NCBI GenBank assembly: GCA_000004985.1
Contig: GG739089.1
Direction: 5' to 3' (one strand)
Length of the DNA: 8,109 nt
From: Naegleria gruberi
Lineage: Eukaryota
The translations under genes were made by a program, and so were the position numbers. Of this stretch, positions 1,274 to 8,108 are shown piece by piece (within the stretch, counting starts at the first letter, position 1; each line of letters starts with the position of its first letter). Under the pieces are notes generated by a model. The model was not told the DNA's origin. It did not search any database and was given only the letters and a program-made list of their open reading frames with translations.

Positions 1274-2134
1274 TCAATAATAACCACTTCCATAGACCTT
1301 CTCCACAATGATGAGATTTTCCTTTTCATTTAAGGTTACACGCATCTCATAGAAACTATATAGTGCACCAGCATTGAAAAAGATTGGAAACATTTGCTTA
1401 TCATAATCTTCCCACGAGGATGAAGTTGATGATTGGCTTGTGTAATGTCCATCCAAGTTTGAAAAATAGCAAAATGGACTAATTTGCTGAGATAAATATT
1501 GTTCCAATTTGTCAGTTGATGATTCCTCCTCTTCTTCTTCTGAATCATCGTCTGATGTTATAATATAAGGTGATACTCCATAAACAATCTTACTGTACTT
1601 GACATTACAATTCAATCTCTTTTTGAAGAATAACAAATCCAAACATGAAAACCATTCATCTCCTTCACTAATCAAAATAATAAAACAAAATAATGAGAAT
1701 GGTATTAAAATCTTGGCCTCTTTCACAATATCTGAATTATCATCCCAGAAACATTGATGTAATATAACTTGATCTGTCACAGGATTAGGTCTGTATTCAT
1801 CCGAAATTAAACTTGTCATAATCACAACCAATTTCATCAAGTTTTCTCTCCTCCGTATCTCAAAAAACTCGCCAACCAATGTATTCTTCAAGAGAGGAAA
1901 AGAAAATGTAAATACTTGTTCCAAACTCAGAGAATCTCCTTGAACAATTGTAACATCTTCATTCCTCTCCTCCACTGATATAAATTTAGGAATGATCGAA
2001 AAGAGGTACTCTAAATAATCATAATGATCAGATAAACCTTCATCGGAATTTTGTAATTCAATTTCGATTTCAGGAAACATTGGATTCACAAAATCTTCCC
2101 ATCTAAAATGAGTATTCAACAGGGCAGTCCACAA
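1274..2134 (-). CDS. C-terminal coding region of a minus-strand gene; product is a hypothetical protein. The open frame covers 286 codons and ends at TGA 1274-1276. The first in-frame ATG is at 2078-2080 (MFPEIEIELQNSDEGLSDHYDYLEY…), giving 268 aa if it is free-standing. Most likely it is the 3' exon or C-terminal domain of the large gene that enters the gap. It contains the acidic/Ser cluster SDDDSEEEEEESS.
   Basis: An 861-nt stop-free frame in roughly 65-70% AT DNA is very unlikely to occur by chance. I verified the stop by hand: …VEKVYGSGYY* = revcomp of 1274-1303. The track's start at 2132-2134 is TTG, not ATG. The codon immediately upstream (2135-2137) is an in-frame TGA. The composition is globular-looking, with mixed hydrophobic and charged residues. 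Confidence 0.6.
   Translation of the reverse strand: MWTALLNTHFRWEDFVNPMFPEIEIELQNSDEGLSDHYDYLEYLFSIIPKFISVEERNEDVTIVQGDSLSLEQVFTFSFPLLKNTLVGEFFEIRRRENLMKLVVIMTSLISDEYRPNPVTDQVILHQCFWDDNSDIVKEAKILIPFSLFCFIILISEGDEWFSCLDLLFFKKRLNCNVKYSKIVYGVSPYIITSDDDSEEEEEESSTDKLEQYLSQQISPFCYFSNLDGHYTSQSSTSSSWEDYDKQMFPIFFNAGALYSFYEMRVTLNEKENLIIVEKVYGSGYY
1524..1543 (-). repeat. Coding (GAA/GAG)n trinucleotide run (tcctcctcttcttcttctga on plus) encoding the EEEEEE part of SDDDSEEEEEESS in the minus-strand C-terminal domain.
   Basis: Read directly from the sequence, in frame with the 1274..2134 ORF. Confidence 0.8.
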
Positions 2135-2175: not shown

Positions 2176-5100
2176 NNNNNNNNNNNNNNNNNNNNNNNNN
2201 NNNNNNNNNNNNNNNNNNNNNNNNNNNNNNNNNNNNNNNNNNNNNNNNNNNNNNNNNNNNNNNNNNNNNNNNNNNNNNNNNNNNNNNNNNNNNNNNNNNN
2301 NNNNNNNNNNNNNNNNNNNNNNNNNNNNNNNNNNNNNNNNNNNNNNNNNNNNNNNNNNNNNNNNNNNNNNNNNNNNNNNNNNNNNNNNNNNNNNNNNNNN
2401 NNNNNNNNNNNNNNNNNNNNNNNNNNNNNNNNNNNNNNNNNNNNNNNNNNNNNNNNNNNNNNNNNNNNNNNNNNNNNNNNNNNNNNNNNNNNNNNNNNNN
2501 NNNNNNNNNNNNNNNNNNNNNNNNNNNNNNNNNNNNNNNNNNNNNNNNNNNNNNNNNNNNNNNNNNNNNNNNNNNNNNNNNNNNNNNNNNNNNNNNNNNN
2601 NNNNNNNNNNNNNNNNNNNNNNNNNNNNNNNNNNNNNNNNNNNNNNNNNNNNNNNNNNNNNNNNNNNNNNNNNNNNNNNNNNNNNNNNNNNNNNNNNNNN
2701 NNNNNNNNNNNNNNNNNNNNNNNNNNNNNNNNNNNNNNNNNNNNNNNNNNNNNNNNNNNNNNNNNNNNNNNNNNNNNNNNNNNNNNNNNNNNNNNNNNNN
2801 NNNNNNNNNNNNNNNNNNNNNNNNNNNNNNNNNNNNNNNNNNNNNNNNNNNNNNNNNNNNNNNNNNNNNNNNNNNNNNNNNNNNNNNNNNNNNNNNNNNN
2901 NNNNNNNNNNNNNNNNNNNNNNNNNNNNNNNNNNNNNNNNNNNNNNNNNNNNNNNNNNNNNNNNNNNNNNNNNNNNNNNNNNNNNNNNNNNNNNNNNNNN
3001 NNNNNNNNNNNNNNNNNNNNNNNNNNNNNNNNNNNNNNNNNNNNNNNNNNNNNNNNNNNNNNNNNNNNNNNNNNNNNNNNNNNNNNNNNNNNNNNNNNNN
3101 NNNNNNNNNNNNNNNNNNNNNNNNNNNNNNNNNNNNNNNNNNNNNNNNNNNNNNNNNNNNNNNNNNNNNNNNNNNNNNNNNNNNNNNNNNNNNNNNNNNN
3201 NNNNNNNNNNNNNNNNNNNNNNNNNNNNNNNNNNNNNNNNNNNNNNNNNNNNNNNNNNNNNNNNNNNNNNNNNNNNNNNNNNNNNNNNNNNNNNNNNNNN
3301 NNNNNNNNNNNNNNNNNNNNNNNNNNNNNNNNNNNNNNNNNNNNNNNNNNNNNNNNNNNNNNNNNNNNNNNNNNNNNNNNNNNNNNNNNNNNNNNNNNNN
3401 NNNNNNNNNNNNNNNNNNNNNNNNNNNNNNNNNNNNNNNNNNNNNNNNNNNNNNNNNNNNNNNNNNNNNNNNNNNNNNNNNNNNNNNNNNNNNNNNNNNN
3501 NNNNNNNNNNNNNNNNNNNNNNNNNNNNNNNNNNNNNNNNNNNNNNNNNNNNNNNNNNNNNNNNNNNNNNNNNNNNNNNNNNNNNNNNNNNNNNNNNNNN
3601 NNNNNNNNNNNNNNNNNNNNNNNNNNNNNNNNNNNNNNNNNNNNNNNNNNNNNNNNNNNNNNNNNNNNNNNNNNNNNNNNNNNNNNNNNNNNNNNNNNNN
3701 NNNNNNNNNNNNNNNNNNNNNNNNNNNNNNNNNNNNNNNNNNNNNNNNNNNNNNNNNNNNNNNNNNNNNNNNNNNNNNNNNNNNNNNNNNNNNNNNNNNN
3801 NNNNNNNNNNNNNNNNNNNNNNNNNNNNNNNNNNNNNNNNNNNNNNNNNNNNNNNNNNNNNNNNNNNNNNNNNNNNNNNNNNNNNNNNNNNNNNNNNNNN
3901 NNNNNNNNNNNNNNNNNNNNNNNNNNNNNNNNNNNNNNNNNNNNNNNNNNNNNNNNNNNNNNNNNNNNNNNNNNNNNNNNNNNNNNNNNNNNNNNNNNNN
4001 NNNNNNNNNNNNNNNNNNNNNNNNNNNNNNNNNNNNNNNNNNNNNNNNNNNNNNNNNNNNNNNNNNNNNNNNNNNNNNNNNNNNNNNNNNNNNNNNNNNN
4101 NNNNNNNNNNNNNNNNNNNNNNNNNNNNNNNNNNNNNNNNNNNNNNNNNNNNNNNNNNNNNNNNNNNNNNNNNNNNNNNNNNNNNNNNNNNNNNNNNNNN
4201 NNNNNNNNNNNNNNNNNNNNNNNNNNNNNNNNNNNNNNNNNNNNNNNNNNNNNNNNNNNNNNNNNNNNNNNNNNNNNNNNNNNNNNNNNNNNNNNNNNNN
4301 NNNNNNNNNNNNNNNNNNNNNNNNNNNNNNNNNNNNNNNNNNNNNNNNNNNNNNNNNNNNNNNNNNNNNNNNNNNNNNNNNNNNNNNNNNNNNNNNNNNN
4401 NNNNNNNNNNNNNNNNNNNNNNNNNNNNNNNNNNNNNNNNNNNNNNNNNNNNNNNNNNNNNNNNNNNNNNNNNNNNNNNNNNNNNNNNNNNNNNNNNNNN
4501 NNNNNNNNNNNNNNNNNNNNNNNNNNNNNNNNNNNNNNNNNNNNNNNNNNNNNNNNNNNNNNNNNNNNNNNNNNNNNNNNNNNNNNNNNNNNNNNNNNNN
4601 NNNNNNNNNNNNNNNNNNNNNNNNNNNNNNNNNNNNNNNNNNNNNNNNNNNNNNNNNNNNNNNNNNNNNNNNNNNNNNNNNNNNNNNNNNNNNNNNNNNN
4701 NNNNNNNNNNNNNNNNNNNNNNNNNNNNNNNNNNNNNNNNNNNNNNNNNNNNNNNNNNNNNNNNNNNNNNNNNNNNNNNNNNNNNNNNNNNNNNNNNNNN
4801 NNNNNNNNNNNNNNNNNNNNNNNNNNNNNNNNNNNNNNNNNNNNNNNNNNNNNNNNNNNNNNNNNNNNNNNNNNNNNNNNNNNNNNNNNNNNNNNNNNNN
4901 NNNNNNNNNNNNNNNNNNNNNNNNNNNNNNNNNNNNNNNNNNNNNNNNNNNNNNNNNNNNNNNNNNNNNNNNNNNNNNNNNNNNNNNNNNNNNNNNNNNN
5001 NNNNNNNNNNNNNNNNNNNNNNNNNNNNNNNNNNNNNNNNNNNNNNNNNNNNNNNNNNNNNNNNNNNNNNNNNNNNNNNNNNNNNNNNNNNNNNNNNNNN

Positions 5101-6786
5101 NNNNNNNNNNNNNNNNNNNNNNNNNNNNNNNNNNNNNNNNNNNNNNNNNNNNNNNNNNNNNNNNNNNNNNNNNNNNNNNNNNNNNNNNNNNNNNNNNNNN
5201 NNNNNNNNNNNNNNNNNNNNNNNNNNNNNNNNNNNNNNNNNNNNNNNNNNNNNNNNNNNNNNNNNNNNNNNNNNNNNNNNNNNNNNNNNNNNNNNNNNNN
5301 NNNNNNNNNNNNNNNNNNNNNNNNNNNNNNNNNNNNNNNNNNNNNNNNNNNNNNNNNNNNNNNNNNNNNNNNNNNNNNNNNNNNNNNNNNNNNNNNNNNN
5401 NNNNNNNNNNNNNNNNNNNNNNNNNNNNNNNNNNNNNNNNNNNNNNNNNNNNNNNNNNNNNNNNNNNNNNNNNNNNNNNNNNNNNNNNNNNNNNNNNNNN
5501 NNNNNNNNNNNNNNNNNNNNNNNNNNNNNNNNNNNNNNNNNNNNNNNNNNNNNNNNNNNNNNNNNNNNNNNNNNNNNNNNNNNNNNNNNNNNNNNNNNNN
5601 NNNNNNNNNNNNNNNNNNNNNNNNNNNNNNNNNNNNNNNNNNNNNNNNNNNNNNNNNNNNNNNNNNNNNNNNNNNNNNNNNNNNNNNNNNNNNNNNNNNN
5701 NNNNNNNNNNNNNNNNNNNNNNNNNNNNNNNNNNNNNNNNNNNNNNNNNNNNNNNNNNNNNNNNNNNNNNNNNNNNNNNNNNNNNNNNNNNNNNNNNNNN
5801 NNNNNNNNNNNNNNNNNNNNNNNNNNNNNNNNNNNNNNNNNNNNNNNNNNNNNNNNNNNNNNNNNNNNNNNNNNNNNNNNNNNNNNNNNNNNNNNNNNNN
5901 NNNNNNNNNNNNNNNNNNNNNNNNNNNNNNNNNNNNNNNNNNNNNNNNNNNNNNNNNNNNNNNNNNNNNNNNNNNNNNNNNNNNNNNNNNNNNNNNNNNN
6001 NNNNNNNNNNNNNNNNNNNNNNNNNNNNNNNNNNNNNNNNNNNNNNNNNNNNNNNNNNNNNNNNNNNNNNNNNNNNNNNNNNNNNNNNNNNNNNNNNNNN
6101 NNNNNNNNNNNNNNNNNNNNNNNNNNNNNNNNNNNNNNNNNNNNNNNNNNNNNNNNNNNNNNNNNNNNNNNNNNNNNNNNNNNNNNNNNNNNNNNNNNNN
6201 NNNNNNNNNNNNNNNNNNNNNNNNNNNNNNNNNNNNNNNNNNNNNNNNNNNNNNNNNNNNNNNNNNNNNNNNNNNNNNNNNNNNNNNNNNNNNNNNNNNN
6301 NNNNNNNNNNNNNNNNNNNNNNNNNNNNNNNNNNNNNNNNNNNNNNNNNNNNNNNNNNNNNNNNNNNNNNNNNNNNNNNNNNNNNNNNNNNNNNNNNNNN
6401 NNNNNNNNNNNNNNNNNNNNNNNNNNNNNNNNNNNNNNNNNNNNNNNNNNNNNNNNNNNNNNNNNNNNNNNNNNNNNNNNNNNNNNNNNNNNNNNNNNNN
6501 NNNNNNNNNNNNNNNNNNNNNNNNNNNNNNNNNNNNNNNNNNNNNNNNNNNNNNNNNNNNNNNNNNNNNNNNNNNNNNNNNNNNNNNNNNNNNNNNNNNN
6601 NNNNNNNNNNNNNNNNNNNNNNNNNNNNNNNNNNNNNNNNNNNNNNNNNNNNNNNNNNNNNNNNNNNNNNNNNNNNNNNNNNNNNNNNNNNNNNNNNNNN
6701 NNNNNNNNNNNNNNNNNNNNNNNNNNNNNNNNNNNNNNNNNNNNNNNNNNNNNNNNNNNNNNNNNNNNNNNNNNNNNNNNNNNNNN
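2176..6786. other. Run of 4,611 N: a scaffold gap or masked block with unknown content. The track ORFs 2103..6797 and most of 2135..7504 are X-translation artefacts.
   Basis: Counted directly: N from 2176 to 6786, and 4611 = 3 x 1537. The non-round size suggests an estimated gap or a masked real segment. Confidence 0.99.
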
Positions 6787-6787
6787 T

Positions 6788-7504
6788 GTTTGAACAAATT
6801 GAATTCATGAAATTAGCTCTAAGTAATCTTAATTTGTCACAAAATTGTCTAAAATTTGAAATAATGTCTTCCATCTCCTGAGACGATTCTCCTGATTCAA
6901 TACTTGTCGAAAAAGCATTAAAAGTCTCTCTAAAGTATTGTACCATAATTTCTGAGATATTCCCTTTGATTAAATACTCTCTTTGGTCGATATTCAACTT
7001 GTAAAATAGAGCTGATTGCACAAATACTATAAATTGTTCTCTCAGTCTCTCTTTAATTTCCAAACAGTTTTCTAATGTCGAAAATACAATTAAATATCGT
7101 TCTGTTATATTACAAATCATATGTACAGCCTGTACCAATGAATTAATATCCGAAATACTATTAAATATTGATACATGATTCTTAATAAAATGTTGTCTCA
7201 TATTTTGAATATATGGTTCAACAATTTGAGTTTTATCCATCACATTCCTCTCTGCCAACAATTTAATTTGCTGAAAACAAATTCCATTCGGATTTTCCAA
7301 CAATTCTGCACAATGAGCTGCATTAATTGCAATAGTTTTTAATAATTCCTGATGACCGGAACCCGAACCAGAACCTCCAACACTATATATTTCTTGTTGT
7401 TCTTTTTGTATGGATAATGATGATGAGGAACAAGCCTTGTTTGATAAATTCCCAACAGCATTCCAACTTTGCACTTGTTGTGCAAGAATTAAATTGTTCA
7501 TCAT
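6788..7504 (-). CDS. N-terminal 239 codons of a large minus-strand gene (hypothetical protein) that continues into the N gap. ATG-ATG is at 7499-7504. Translation is MMNNLILAQQVQSWNAVGNLSNKACSSSSLSIQKEQQEIYSVGGSGSGSGHQELLKTIAINAAHCAELLENPNGICFQQIKLL…RLLRANFMNSICSN. It is helical-looking, with a (GS)4 linker.
   Basis: I verified the codons at both ends by hand (revcomp of gttcatcat at 7496-7504 = ATGATGAAC; the last full codon at 6788-6790 is gtt, giving N). An in-frame TAA lies 6 nt upstream of the ATG, so this is the first ATG of the frame. The context is A-rich Kozak-like, aaaattaaaaaATGATG. It is 717 nt stop-free in AT-rich DNA. Confidence 0.6.
7356..7378 (-). repeat. Imperfect hexanucleotide tandem repeat (NGAACC)3, ccggaacccgaaccagaacctcc on plus, encoding the GSGSGSG linker of the N-terminal fragment.
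   Basis: Read directly from the sequence; it corresponds to SVGGSGSGSGHQ in the minus-strand translation. Confidence 0.7.
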
Positions 7505-7526
7505 TTTTTAATTTTGGAGGGAAATT
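7505..7526. promoter_or_regulatory. 22-bp spacer (tttttaattttggagggaaatt) between divergent start codons. The shared bidirectional 5' region/promoter must overlap it, or the true 5' ends lie elsewhere.
   Basis: The minus ATG is at 7502-7504 and the plus ATG at 7527-7529. In-frame stops sit immediately upstream of each (TAA at 7508-7510 for the minus gene, TAA at 7509-7511 for the plus gene), so neither ORF can extend 5' without an intron. Confidence 0.35.
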
Positions 7527-8108
7527 ATGAAAAAATATTTAAATTTTAATAAACAAGTTTTACTTTCAATTCTCTCTCGACAACAGCAGCAGAAACAACA
7601 ACAACAACGAGTAGATAGCTTTGAATCAAAAATATATAATAGAACAACAAATATTGAAGGATTGAATAGGAGTACAATAGTACAAGAAAGATTTTATAAT
7701 ACAAGCCTCATTAGAATGTCATCATCATCCGATAATAATAATAATTCATCATCACATGATGAGAGTATTGCACCTTCCTCTTCATCATCAGAACAACAAC
7801 AAGTAGATAATAATACAAATTTTGAACAAGTGGGATGGAATCAAACTAAAATTGATAGACCAACACAGGAAGATATTCAAGTCATTGAAAAGATACAATT
7901 GAAGAAGGCTATTACAGTGCCGAATGCTATTGTGAAGAGATGTAAATGGGGATATCCACAAGTGACATTTGCATTCACTAGTAAAAACAAGGCAGAAACT
8001 TCTGAGAATACCTATGTACCAGGAACATTCCTTTGGTTGACATGTCCTAGAGTTAATTTAATTATTGATAAAGTGGAAACATCTGATGAATTTAATGAAA
8101 TAAGAAGA
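7527..8108 (+). CDS. 3'-partial ORF of at least 194 codons running off the right window edge; product is a hypothetical protein. Its N-terminal low-complexity region (QQQQKQQQQ, SSSSDNNNNSSS, SSSSSEQQQ) is followed by a globular-looking segment, …KIQLKKAITVPNAIVKRCKWGYPQVTFAFTSKNKAETSENTYVPGTFLWLTCPRVNLIIDKVETSDEFNEIRR…
   Basis: I translated it codon by codon by hand from ATG 7527-7529 to 8108 and found no stop. An upstream in-frame TAA at 7509-7511 makes this the first ATG. The track omits it because it has no in-window stop. I cannot assign a family from memory. Confidence 0.6.
   Translation, partial: MKKYLNFNKQVLLSILSRQQQQKQQQQRVDSFESKIYNRTTNIEGLNRSTIVQERFYNTSLIRMSSSSDNNNNSSSHDESIAPSSSSSEQQQVDNNTNFEQVGWNQTKIDRPTQEDIQVIEKIQLKKAITVPNAIVKRCKWGYPQVTFAFTSKNKAETSENTYVPGTFLWLTCPRVNLIIDKVETSDEFNEIRR
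7581..7610 (+). repeat. Coding trinucleotide microsatellite (CAA/CAG)n encoding QQQQKQQQQR. The same gene has further runs at 7719..7754 ((TCA)4-GAT-(AAT)4-(TCA)4 = SSSSDNNNNSSSS) and at 7776..7802 (TCC-TCT-(TCA)3-GAA-(CAA)3).
   Basis: Read directly: caacagcagcagaaacaacaacaacaacga; tcatcatcatccgataataataataattcatcatca; tcctcttcatcatcagaacaacaacaa. Confidence 0.85.

Follow-up and report, generated by a model that had tools for sequence, protein, structure and literature searches.

A partial DUF501-family gene with a putative mitochondrial leader in a Naegleria-clade heterolobosean

We analyzed a stretch of 8,109 nucleotides from contig GG739089.1 of the Naegleria gruberi assembly GCA_000004985.1 (hereafter the window), in which an open reading frame (ORF) on the plus strand at positions 7527–8108 runs for 194 codons and is still open where the window ends. 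Judged from its sequence and its orthologues, this ORF forms the 5' half of a gene in the nuclear genome of a heterolobosean amoeba from the Naegleria clade, and its product is a protein of the DUF501 family (PF04417). The gene is a further member of a known, functionally uncharacterised family and represents no new kind of gene. With moderate confidence, we favour a reading in which the complete protein consists of a mitochondrial leader, a variable linker and a metal-binding DUF501 domain, and takes part in a pathway linked to the Ppx/GppA phosphatases.

The ORF starts with an ATG at 7527–7529, and an in-frame stop is located five codons upstream of it. Both remaining plus-strand frames are dense with stops over the same region, and the chance of 194 open codons was estimated at about 1e-7 from the local base composition (stop probability about 0.079 per codon). 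The ORF was absent from the ORF list because run-off ORFs were excluded from the listing. The initial annotation had proposed an unlisted plus-strand gene without a stop in the window, with a functional domain that continues past the window edge, and both proposals are borne out, the former by the open frame, the Pfam match and the orthologues described below, and the latter by full-length orthologues that extend about 190 residues further. Collinearity with three full-length orthologous proteins holds to the last codon of the ORF, and judging from these proteins, about 190 more codons would be expected 3' of the window. Two minus-strand ORFs in the same region, at 7546–7704 (52 amino acids, aa) and 7788–7961 (57 aa), were rejected as genes, being shadows of the conserved plus-strand frame.

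A search of the ORF against Pfam with hmmscan returned a single match, PF04417 (DUF501), with an E value of 3e-6 and 27.7 bits (gathering score 23.8). The match lies at 7932–8096 on the plus strand, where residues 136–190 correspond to profile positions 2–52 of 139; it is partial because the window ends about one third into the domain. The full-length orthologues scored 67.5, 72.1 and 60.4 bits against the same profile, and an NCBIfam search of the ORF fragment gave no match. All the DUF501 characters that fall within the window, namely the profile score, both motifs of the N-terminal lobe and the invariant Glu, were found. A word-indexed search that covered 5.8 billion proteins returned two homologues, both of which carry PF04417: P0001 (287 aa, ENA metagenome, ERZ27315067 k141_463892; E value 1.3e-35, 68% identity over the domain) and P0002 (298 aa, Willaertia magna ABK040_001883; E value 3.9e-23). 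When 1.84 billion cluster representatives were searched with a profile, 110 proteins reached E ≤ 1e-3, and the top matches included Naegleria lovaniensis C9374_001999 (XP_044550956.1, 372 aa), which is 59% identical over 111 aa, and a DUF501 relative encoded by Acrasis kona. The latter protein (P0005, KAL0477208.1) bears the source name 'trehalose-phosphate phosphatase D'; Pfam finds only DUF501 in it, and the name looks like an annotation-transfer error. The loci of the closest orthologues are referred to as L001 (the metagenome contig of P0001), L002 (Willaertia) and L009 (N. lovaniensis).

Residues 100–194 (7824–8108, plus strand) form a conserved block that comprises the N-terminal lobe of DUF501 and a heterolobosean-specific lead-in, F-x-x-x-G-W, and this block is 51–66% identical to the three heterolobosean orthologues, with conservation beginning at about residue 100 (G103-W104). 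For a broader view of conservation, we used an alignment of 81 family representatives, with P0001 as the reference for numbering. The columns equivalent to C139, G142 and P144 (R-C-x-W-G-Y-P) and to W170, L171, C173 and P174 (W-L-T-C-P) are at least 90% conserved in these representatives. Cys139 (7941–7943) corresponds to C49 of P0001 and is Cys in 75 of the 75 ungapped representatives, Cys173 (8043–8045) corresponds to C84 and is Cys in 80 of 81, and Glu184 (8076–8078), the invariant DUF501 Glu, corresponds to E95 and is Glu in all 81. Glu184 was matched to Glu59 of the Mycobacterium tuberculosis reference protein Rv1025 by motif (L-E after W-L-T-C-P) and not by a direct alignment to Rv1025. 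Over the whole family, E95, K225, C226 and H228 are invariant in the 81 representatives, and C49, C84, H230, C272 and C279 are at least 90% conserved, the exceptions being mostly fragments. A K-C-L-H-x-H motif is present in all three heterolobosean orthologues at a site about 130 residues past the window end, and eukaryote-type proteins have a third C-terminal Cys, giving C-x3-C-x2-C. In the 81 representatives, the conserved set of potential ligands, comprising five Cys, two His, a Glu and a Lys, is wider than the published Cys-His-Glu triad.

The closest orthologue, P0001, was modelled with AlphaFold2. A 3-sequence alignment gave an unusable model with a predicted local distance difference test (pLDDT) score of 34, and the model from the 81-sequence alignment was used instead (pLDDT 84.2, predicted template modelling score 0.83). 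The part matching residues 100–194 has pLDDT values of 87–95 except for a loop at 61–70 (pLDDT 65), and the first confident helix corresponds to window residues of about 114–123. Searches for relatives of solved structure gave none: Foldseek of the P0001 model against PDB reached a best E value of 2, phmmer with P0001 against solved-structure sequences a best E value of 0.26, and the 81-sequence profile against PDB a best E value of 0.033 for a MarR regulator, which was judged a chance match. In light of these analyses, the abrupt change to a conserved domain that the initial annotation placed at about residue 115 is well founded, given orthologue conservation from about residue 100, the Pfam match at 136–190 and the helix at about 114–123. 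Its description of the domain as divergent or uncharacterised and unmatched to any family holds for the second term, but the family is a known one (PF04417, COG1507), and the HMMER search that it recommended for the region from about residue 115 placed PF04417 above the cut-off. The orthologue check that it recommended showed the G and P of W-G-Y-P and the L, C and P of L-T-C-P to be kept across the family. Among the motifs that it singled out, WGYP (through G142 and P144, with C139 just before) and WLTCP (through W170, L171, C173 and P174) are near-invariant in the 81 representatives, whereas FAF is conserved only within Heterolobosea.

The region upstream of the domain is composed of two parts. 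Residues 1–29 (7527–7613, plus strand; MKKYLNFNKQVLLSILSRQQQQKQQQQRV), which include the start codon, form a basic, acid-free leader and a putative mitochondrial presequence. Residues 19–99 (7581–7823) form a variable linker that is partly rich in Q, S and N, overlaps the tail of the leader and contains an internal methionine, Met64 (7716–7718). Q, S and N together make up 45% of residues 1–100 versus 16% of residues 101–194, and the runs are QQQQ-K-QQQQ (19–27), SSSS/NNNN/SSS (65–76), SSSSS (84–88) and QQQ (90–92), with homopolymer residue runs 3–5 long. The low-complexity Q/S/N N-terminus that had been described thus exists as a bias in composition but not to the described extent, as residues 1–18 and 28–63 are of ordinary complexity. 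The CAA, TCA and AAT microsatellites said to encode it were overstated, since Tandem Repeats Finder reported over the ORF only an (AAC)5 at 7594–7608. Nor is the N-terminus simply a low-complexity tail, because a basic, acid-free leader of about 18–29 residues is conserved in four heterolobosean genes.

Comparisons of the four N-termini showed a common MKK[Y/I] start. The window gene (MKKYLNFNKQVLLSILSR, start at 7527) begins with MKKYLNFNK and the Willaertia gene (MKKILNFNKKHCLLASHCVKR, from an in-frame upstream ATG at 9920 in L002) with MKKILNFNK; the L001 gene (MKKYWSSLQKGKSLVV, from an in-frame upstream ATG at 4081) begins with MKKYWSSLQK, and the annotated N. lovaniensis protein (MKKYFFAVLASNNLATL, from 8001 in L009) with MKKYFFAV. 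The window and Willaertia leaders share eight of nine residues and differ at three synonymous codons, and synonymous differences under shared leader residues mark selection at the protein level. Over residues 1–13 the window protein is 38–69% identical to the orthologues, versus 12–24%, with many gaps, over residues 14–99, and the length of the linker varies between species. The frames upstream of the existing P0001 and P0002 gene calls stay open for 27–67 codons (stop probability about 0.08 per codon). Probably, 67 codons are missing from the 5' end of the P0001 gene call and 27 from that of W. magna ABK040_001883, and the missed coding stretches would be L001 4081–4281 and L002 9920–10000.

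The composition of the leaders is also consistent with organelle import. The window leader has six K/R and no D/E before residue 30, and the four heterolobosean leaders have 5–8 K/R and no D/E over the first 29–50 residues; their hydrophobic moments are moderate, 0.34–0.44 (0.34 for the first 18 residues of the window protein). Among 21 neighbouring genes at the three orthologue loci, only a zf-DNL (Hep1/Zim17) protein has a comparable N-terminus, and proteins of this family are residents of the mitochondrial matrix. Sixteen other neighbouring genes encode early acidic residues and few basic ones, and an RCC1 protein at L009 is intermediate, with four K/R and its first acidic residue at position 44, so that it partly resembles the leaders. 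Long N-terminal stretches that are basic and acid-free also occur in the distant eukaryote-type homologues P0006 and P0013. We read residues 1 to about 29 as a probable mitochondrial targeting presequence, and a leader of this kind would point to an organellar role for heterolobosean DUF501. The literature searched held no link between DUF501 and mitochondria.

Two other explanations of the N-terminus were weighed against import. In one, the internal methionine Met64 (7716) would serve as the start, the 63 codons before it would belong to a 5' untranslated region or a chance frame, and the protein would be cytosolic and leaderless. The P0001 and Willaertia P0002 gene calls do begin at internal methionines, and the 22 bp between ATG 7527 and the divergent ATG of the neighbouring APC2 gene leave little room for a promoter or an untranslated region. 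On the other hand, the MKK[Y/I] start and the open frame recur in four genomes, where identical residues are encoded with synonymous changes, the N. lovaniensis annotation uses the conserved start, with a spacer of 38 bp, and the chance that 63 and 67 codons would stay open is about 0.005 for each, all of which make internal initiation unlikely. Somewhat less improbable, yet still doubtful, is that the extension is translated and has no targeting role, being a disordered biased tail of the type found in AT-rich protists or another signal, such as a weak signal peptide. The poor conservation and the Q/S/N richness of residues 19–99, the modest hydrophobic moment of 0.34 over the first 18 residues and the lack of an extension in the eukaryote-type homologues P0005, P0008 and P0011 as called would agree with such a tail, but the first 13 or so residues are 38–69% identical against 12–24% in the linker, all four heterolobosean proteins have 29–50 acid-free, K/R-rich residues like the zf-DNL neighbour, and the hydrophobic stretches fall short of the length expected of a typical signal peptide. 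For the ORF as a whole, a decaying pseudogene or an assembly fragment with nothing functional 3' of the window is very improbable. The 3' part does lie outside the window, and an exact 51-mer (8016–8066) is absent from genome, metagenome and viral contig collections, but identity to the orthologues stays at 51–66% up to the final codon, the family-conserved residues are intact and the synteny with APC2 is kept.

DUF501 is essential in M. tuberculosis (Rv1025), Corynebacterium glutamicum and C. diphtheriae (PMC10166564; bioRxiv 10.64898/2026.08.31.746906) and has been catalogued as a family without an experimentally determined function (bioRxiv 10.64898/2026.08.31.746906). The same preprint proposed, from computation only, a divalent-metal site of Cys113, His115 and Glu59 in Rv1025, predicted to be incompletely coordinated and open to solvent, with conserved Lys/Arg in the second shell, and reported no structural homologue of Rv1025 and no AlphaFold-Multimer support for an Rv1025–Ppx2 complex (bioRxiv 10.64898/2026.08.31.746906). 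About 100 eukaryotic members, Naegleria among them, are listed there and left uninterpreted (bioRxiv 10.64898/2026.08.31.746906). Our literature search for the localisation or function of eukaryotic DUF501 found none.

Bacterial homologues provide a functional association. All eight long representatives scanned (500–580 aa) are fusions of DUF501 and Ppx-GppA, one further representative is a fusion of GNAT and DUF501, and in the bacterial loci L003 and L004 DUF501 is located directly upstream of Ppx-GppA. Outside the actinobacterial arrangement, the bacterial contexts observed were S1–DUF501–Ppx; mfd–surA-like–mazG–eno–divIC–S1–DUF501–Ppx; S1–DUF501; and PLD–DUF501–rplU–prp–rpmA–obg (L007/L008). 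A small gene for an S1-domain (RNA-binding, YabR-like) protein lies directly upstream of DUF501 in three of these four contexts (L003, L004 and L006), which hints at an RNA or ribosome link for DUF501 besides that to Ppx/GppA. Association with Ppx/GppA is typical of bacterial DUF501 without defining the family, and its lack beside the heterolobosean genes is in line with their being eukaryotic.

Based on these observations, we propose a layout in which the presequence would be removed after import, leaving a fast-evolving, partly Q/S/N-rich linker that lacks conserved sequence, followed by the DUF501 domain, which is most likely a metal-binding module. Glu184 and the K-C-L-H-x-H motif past the window would form a Cys-His-Glu divalent-metal site as predicted for Rv1025. 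Cys139 and Cys173, with the two near-invariant C-terminal cysteines, may form a second, hypothetical four-Cys site that binds Zn or an Fe-S cluster. We infer that the protein would be metal-dependent and act in the same process as the Ppx/GppA phosphatases, that is, in the turnover of polyphosphate or (p)ppGpp. A more specific version, in which a stand-alone heterolobosean DUF501 protein is imported into mitochondria, holds both Cys-His-Glu and four-Cys centres (possibly Fe-S) and carries out the essential reaction of Rv1025 without Ppx/GppA, is put forward only as a speculative possibility. If true, it would offer a eukaryotic organellar setting for discovering the function of DUF501; the heterolobosean results serve as leads to that end and leave the classification of the gene unchanged.

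It is also possible, if rather less probable, that DUF501 is no metalloenzyme but a regulatory subunit or adaptor without catalysis of its own, for instance one serving Ppx/GppA phosphatases, and that its conserved Cys, His and Glu residues are structural (for instance binding a structural zinc) or redox-sensing. Fusion or adjacency with Ppx-GppA is the only consistent functional association, the five conserved Cys and two conserved His would suit structural Zn or Fe-S binding as well as catalysis, and the literature found contains no biochemical evidence. However, the open, incompletely coordinated site with second-shell Lys/Arg described in the preprint is more typical of catalysis, its AlphaFold-Multimer runs gave no support for an Rv1025–Ppx2 complex, and the eukaryotic genes are solitary, the flanks available containing no Ppx gene. 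Several further points weigh against the reading of an imported, metal-dependent protein in a Ppx/GppA-linked pathway. The presequence assignment draws on simple rules of amino-acid composition and a comparison with a small set of genes at the same loci, and an internal methionine serves as the start both in the metagenome call for P0001 and in the NCBI annotation of Willaertia (P0002). Only 22–38 bp lie between the extended ATG and the ATG of APC2, and in Willaertia the TRAM_LAG1 gene upstream ends 2 bp before the extended ATG. The published case for metal binding by DUF501 is wholly computational, no Ppx/GppA gene was found in the available flanks of the eukaryotic DUF501 loci (the genomes as wholes were not searched), and the window ends at profile position 52 of 139, so that neither the Cys-His pair nor the C-terminal cysteines and stop codon of this particular gene fall inside it.

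The gene context further supports the origin of the window. The visible N-terminal part of an orthologue of APC2 (anaphase-promoting complex subunit 2) lies at 6787–7504 on the minus strand, with the rest in a run of masked N. The ORF from 7504 (minus strand) is 49% identical (E value 8e-62) to L001 3138–4043 (minus strand), which continues into ORFs matching TPR_ANAPC2 (101.9 bits) and Cullin_AB/ANAPC2. The start codons of DUF501 (plus strand) and APC2 (minus strand) are separated by a spacer of 22 bp (7505–7526), and the same head-to-head arrangement is found in L001 (37-bp spacer) and in N. lovaniensis L009 (38-bp spacer), both of which have a radial-spoke gene 3' of DUF501. Because the head-to-head APC2 neighbour is common to two orthologue genomes, the window is nuclear heterolobosean DNA. 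The genes at the orthologue loci include TRAM/LAG1, APC2, a radial-spoke protein, dynein heavy chain, DOCK and zf-DNL; a bacterial, phage or giant-virus origin was rejected in view of the APC2, radial-spoke and dynein neighbours together with the orthologues in Naegleria and Willaertia nuclear assemblies.

The conserved, tiny spacer between APC2 and DUF501 implies that the two genes either share a bidirectional promoter of very small size or begin transcription within each other's coding sequence. Motifs in the spacer, TTTGGAGGGAAA in the window (7513–7524) and TTTGGGCGCCAAT in L001 (4061–4073), are each one change away from the E2F consensus (TTTGGCGGGAAA / TTTGGCGCCAAA). An E2F-like motif would be in keeping with APC2 as a cell-cycle gene; none is present in the N. 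lovaniensis spacer, and the two matches may be due to chance. The APC2 gene of L001 (1611–4058, minus strand) is split into overlapping ORFs in different frames (3138–4058, 2540–3205 and 1611–2642), which points to short introns or assembly frameshifts, and prokaryote-style gene calling gave it as two genes.

In the rest of the window, an N run at 2176–6786 (4611 N) masks over half of the sequence and hides most of the APC2-like gene (expected to extend about 2.4 kb downstream of ATG 7504) and about 2.9 kb more. Two ORFs of 1789 aa and 1564 aa that read through this run were discarded as masking artefacts. An ORF at 1274–2134 (minus strand, 286 aa) adjoins the N run and encodes an acidic stretch of Ser, Asp and Glu (SDDDSEEEEEESS). 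No Pfam model matched it at an E value below 0.1, and it probably encodes the C-terminal part of a protein whose gene begins within the N run. No ORF in the first 1.2 kb or so of the window exceeds 86 aa, and this region includes, at 1004–1043, a 19-bp unit (ACTGAGGTTCACCTTAATA) repeated perfectly in tandem (2.1 copies). Rfam and tRNA scans of the window gave no matches.

Compared with known systems, the window gene shares with the DUF501 family (PF04417, IPR007511, COG1507, K09009; reference Rv1025) the R-C-x-x-G-x-P and W-L-T-C-P motifs and the invariant Glu, and its orthologues likewise carry K-C-L-H-x-H. Rv1025 has no relative of solved fold, as was found for the P0001 model. In contrast to bacterial DUF501 genes, the window gene is nuclear, monocistronic and outside an eno–divIC–DUF501–ppx operon, and it adds a leader plus linker of about 100 residues; its orthologues have a poorly modelled insertion of about 50 residues (pLDDT 60–65) that splits the Pfam match in two, and they end in a C-x3-C-x2-C tail. 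Rv1025 is 155 aa long, whereas the heterolobosean proteins are about 325–372 aa from the extended start. Within Heterolobosea, the orthologues have a collinear architecture and the same MKK[Y/I] start as the window gene, whose linker exceeds theirs in length and in Q, S and N content. None of the three belongs to the same species as the window gene, the best identity being 68% over the domain; the Willaertia gene differs in its context, following TRAM_LAG1 instead of forming a head-to-head pair with APC2. The window protein and its orthologues lack the Ppx-GppA domain of the bacterial fusions, but the bacterial DUF501–Ppx/GppA fusions and pairs contain the same domain with the same conserved set of Cys, His, Glu and Lys.

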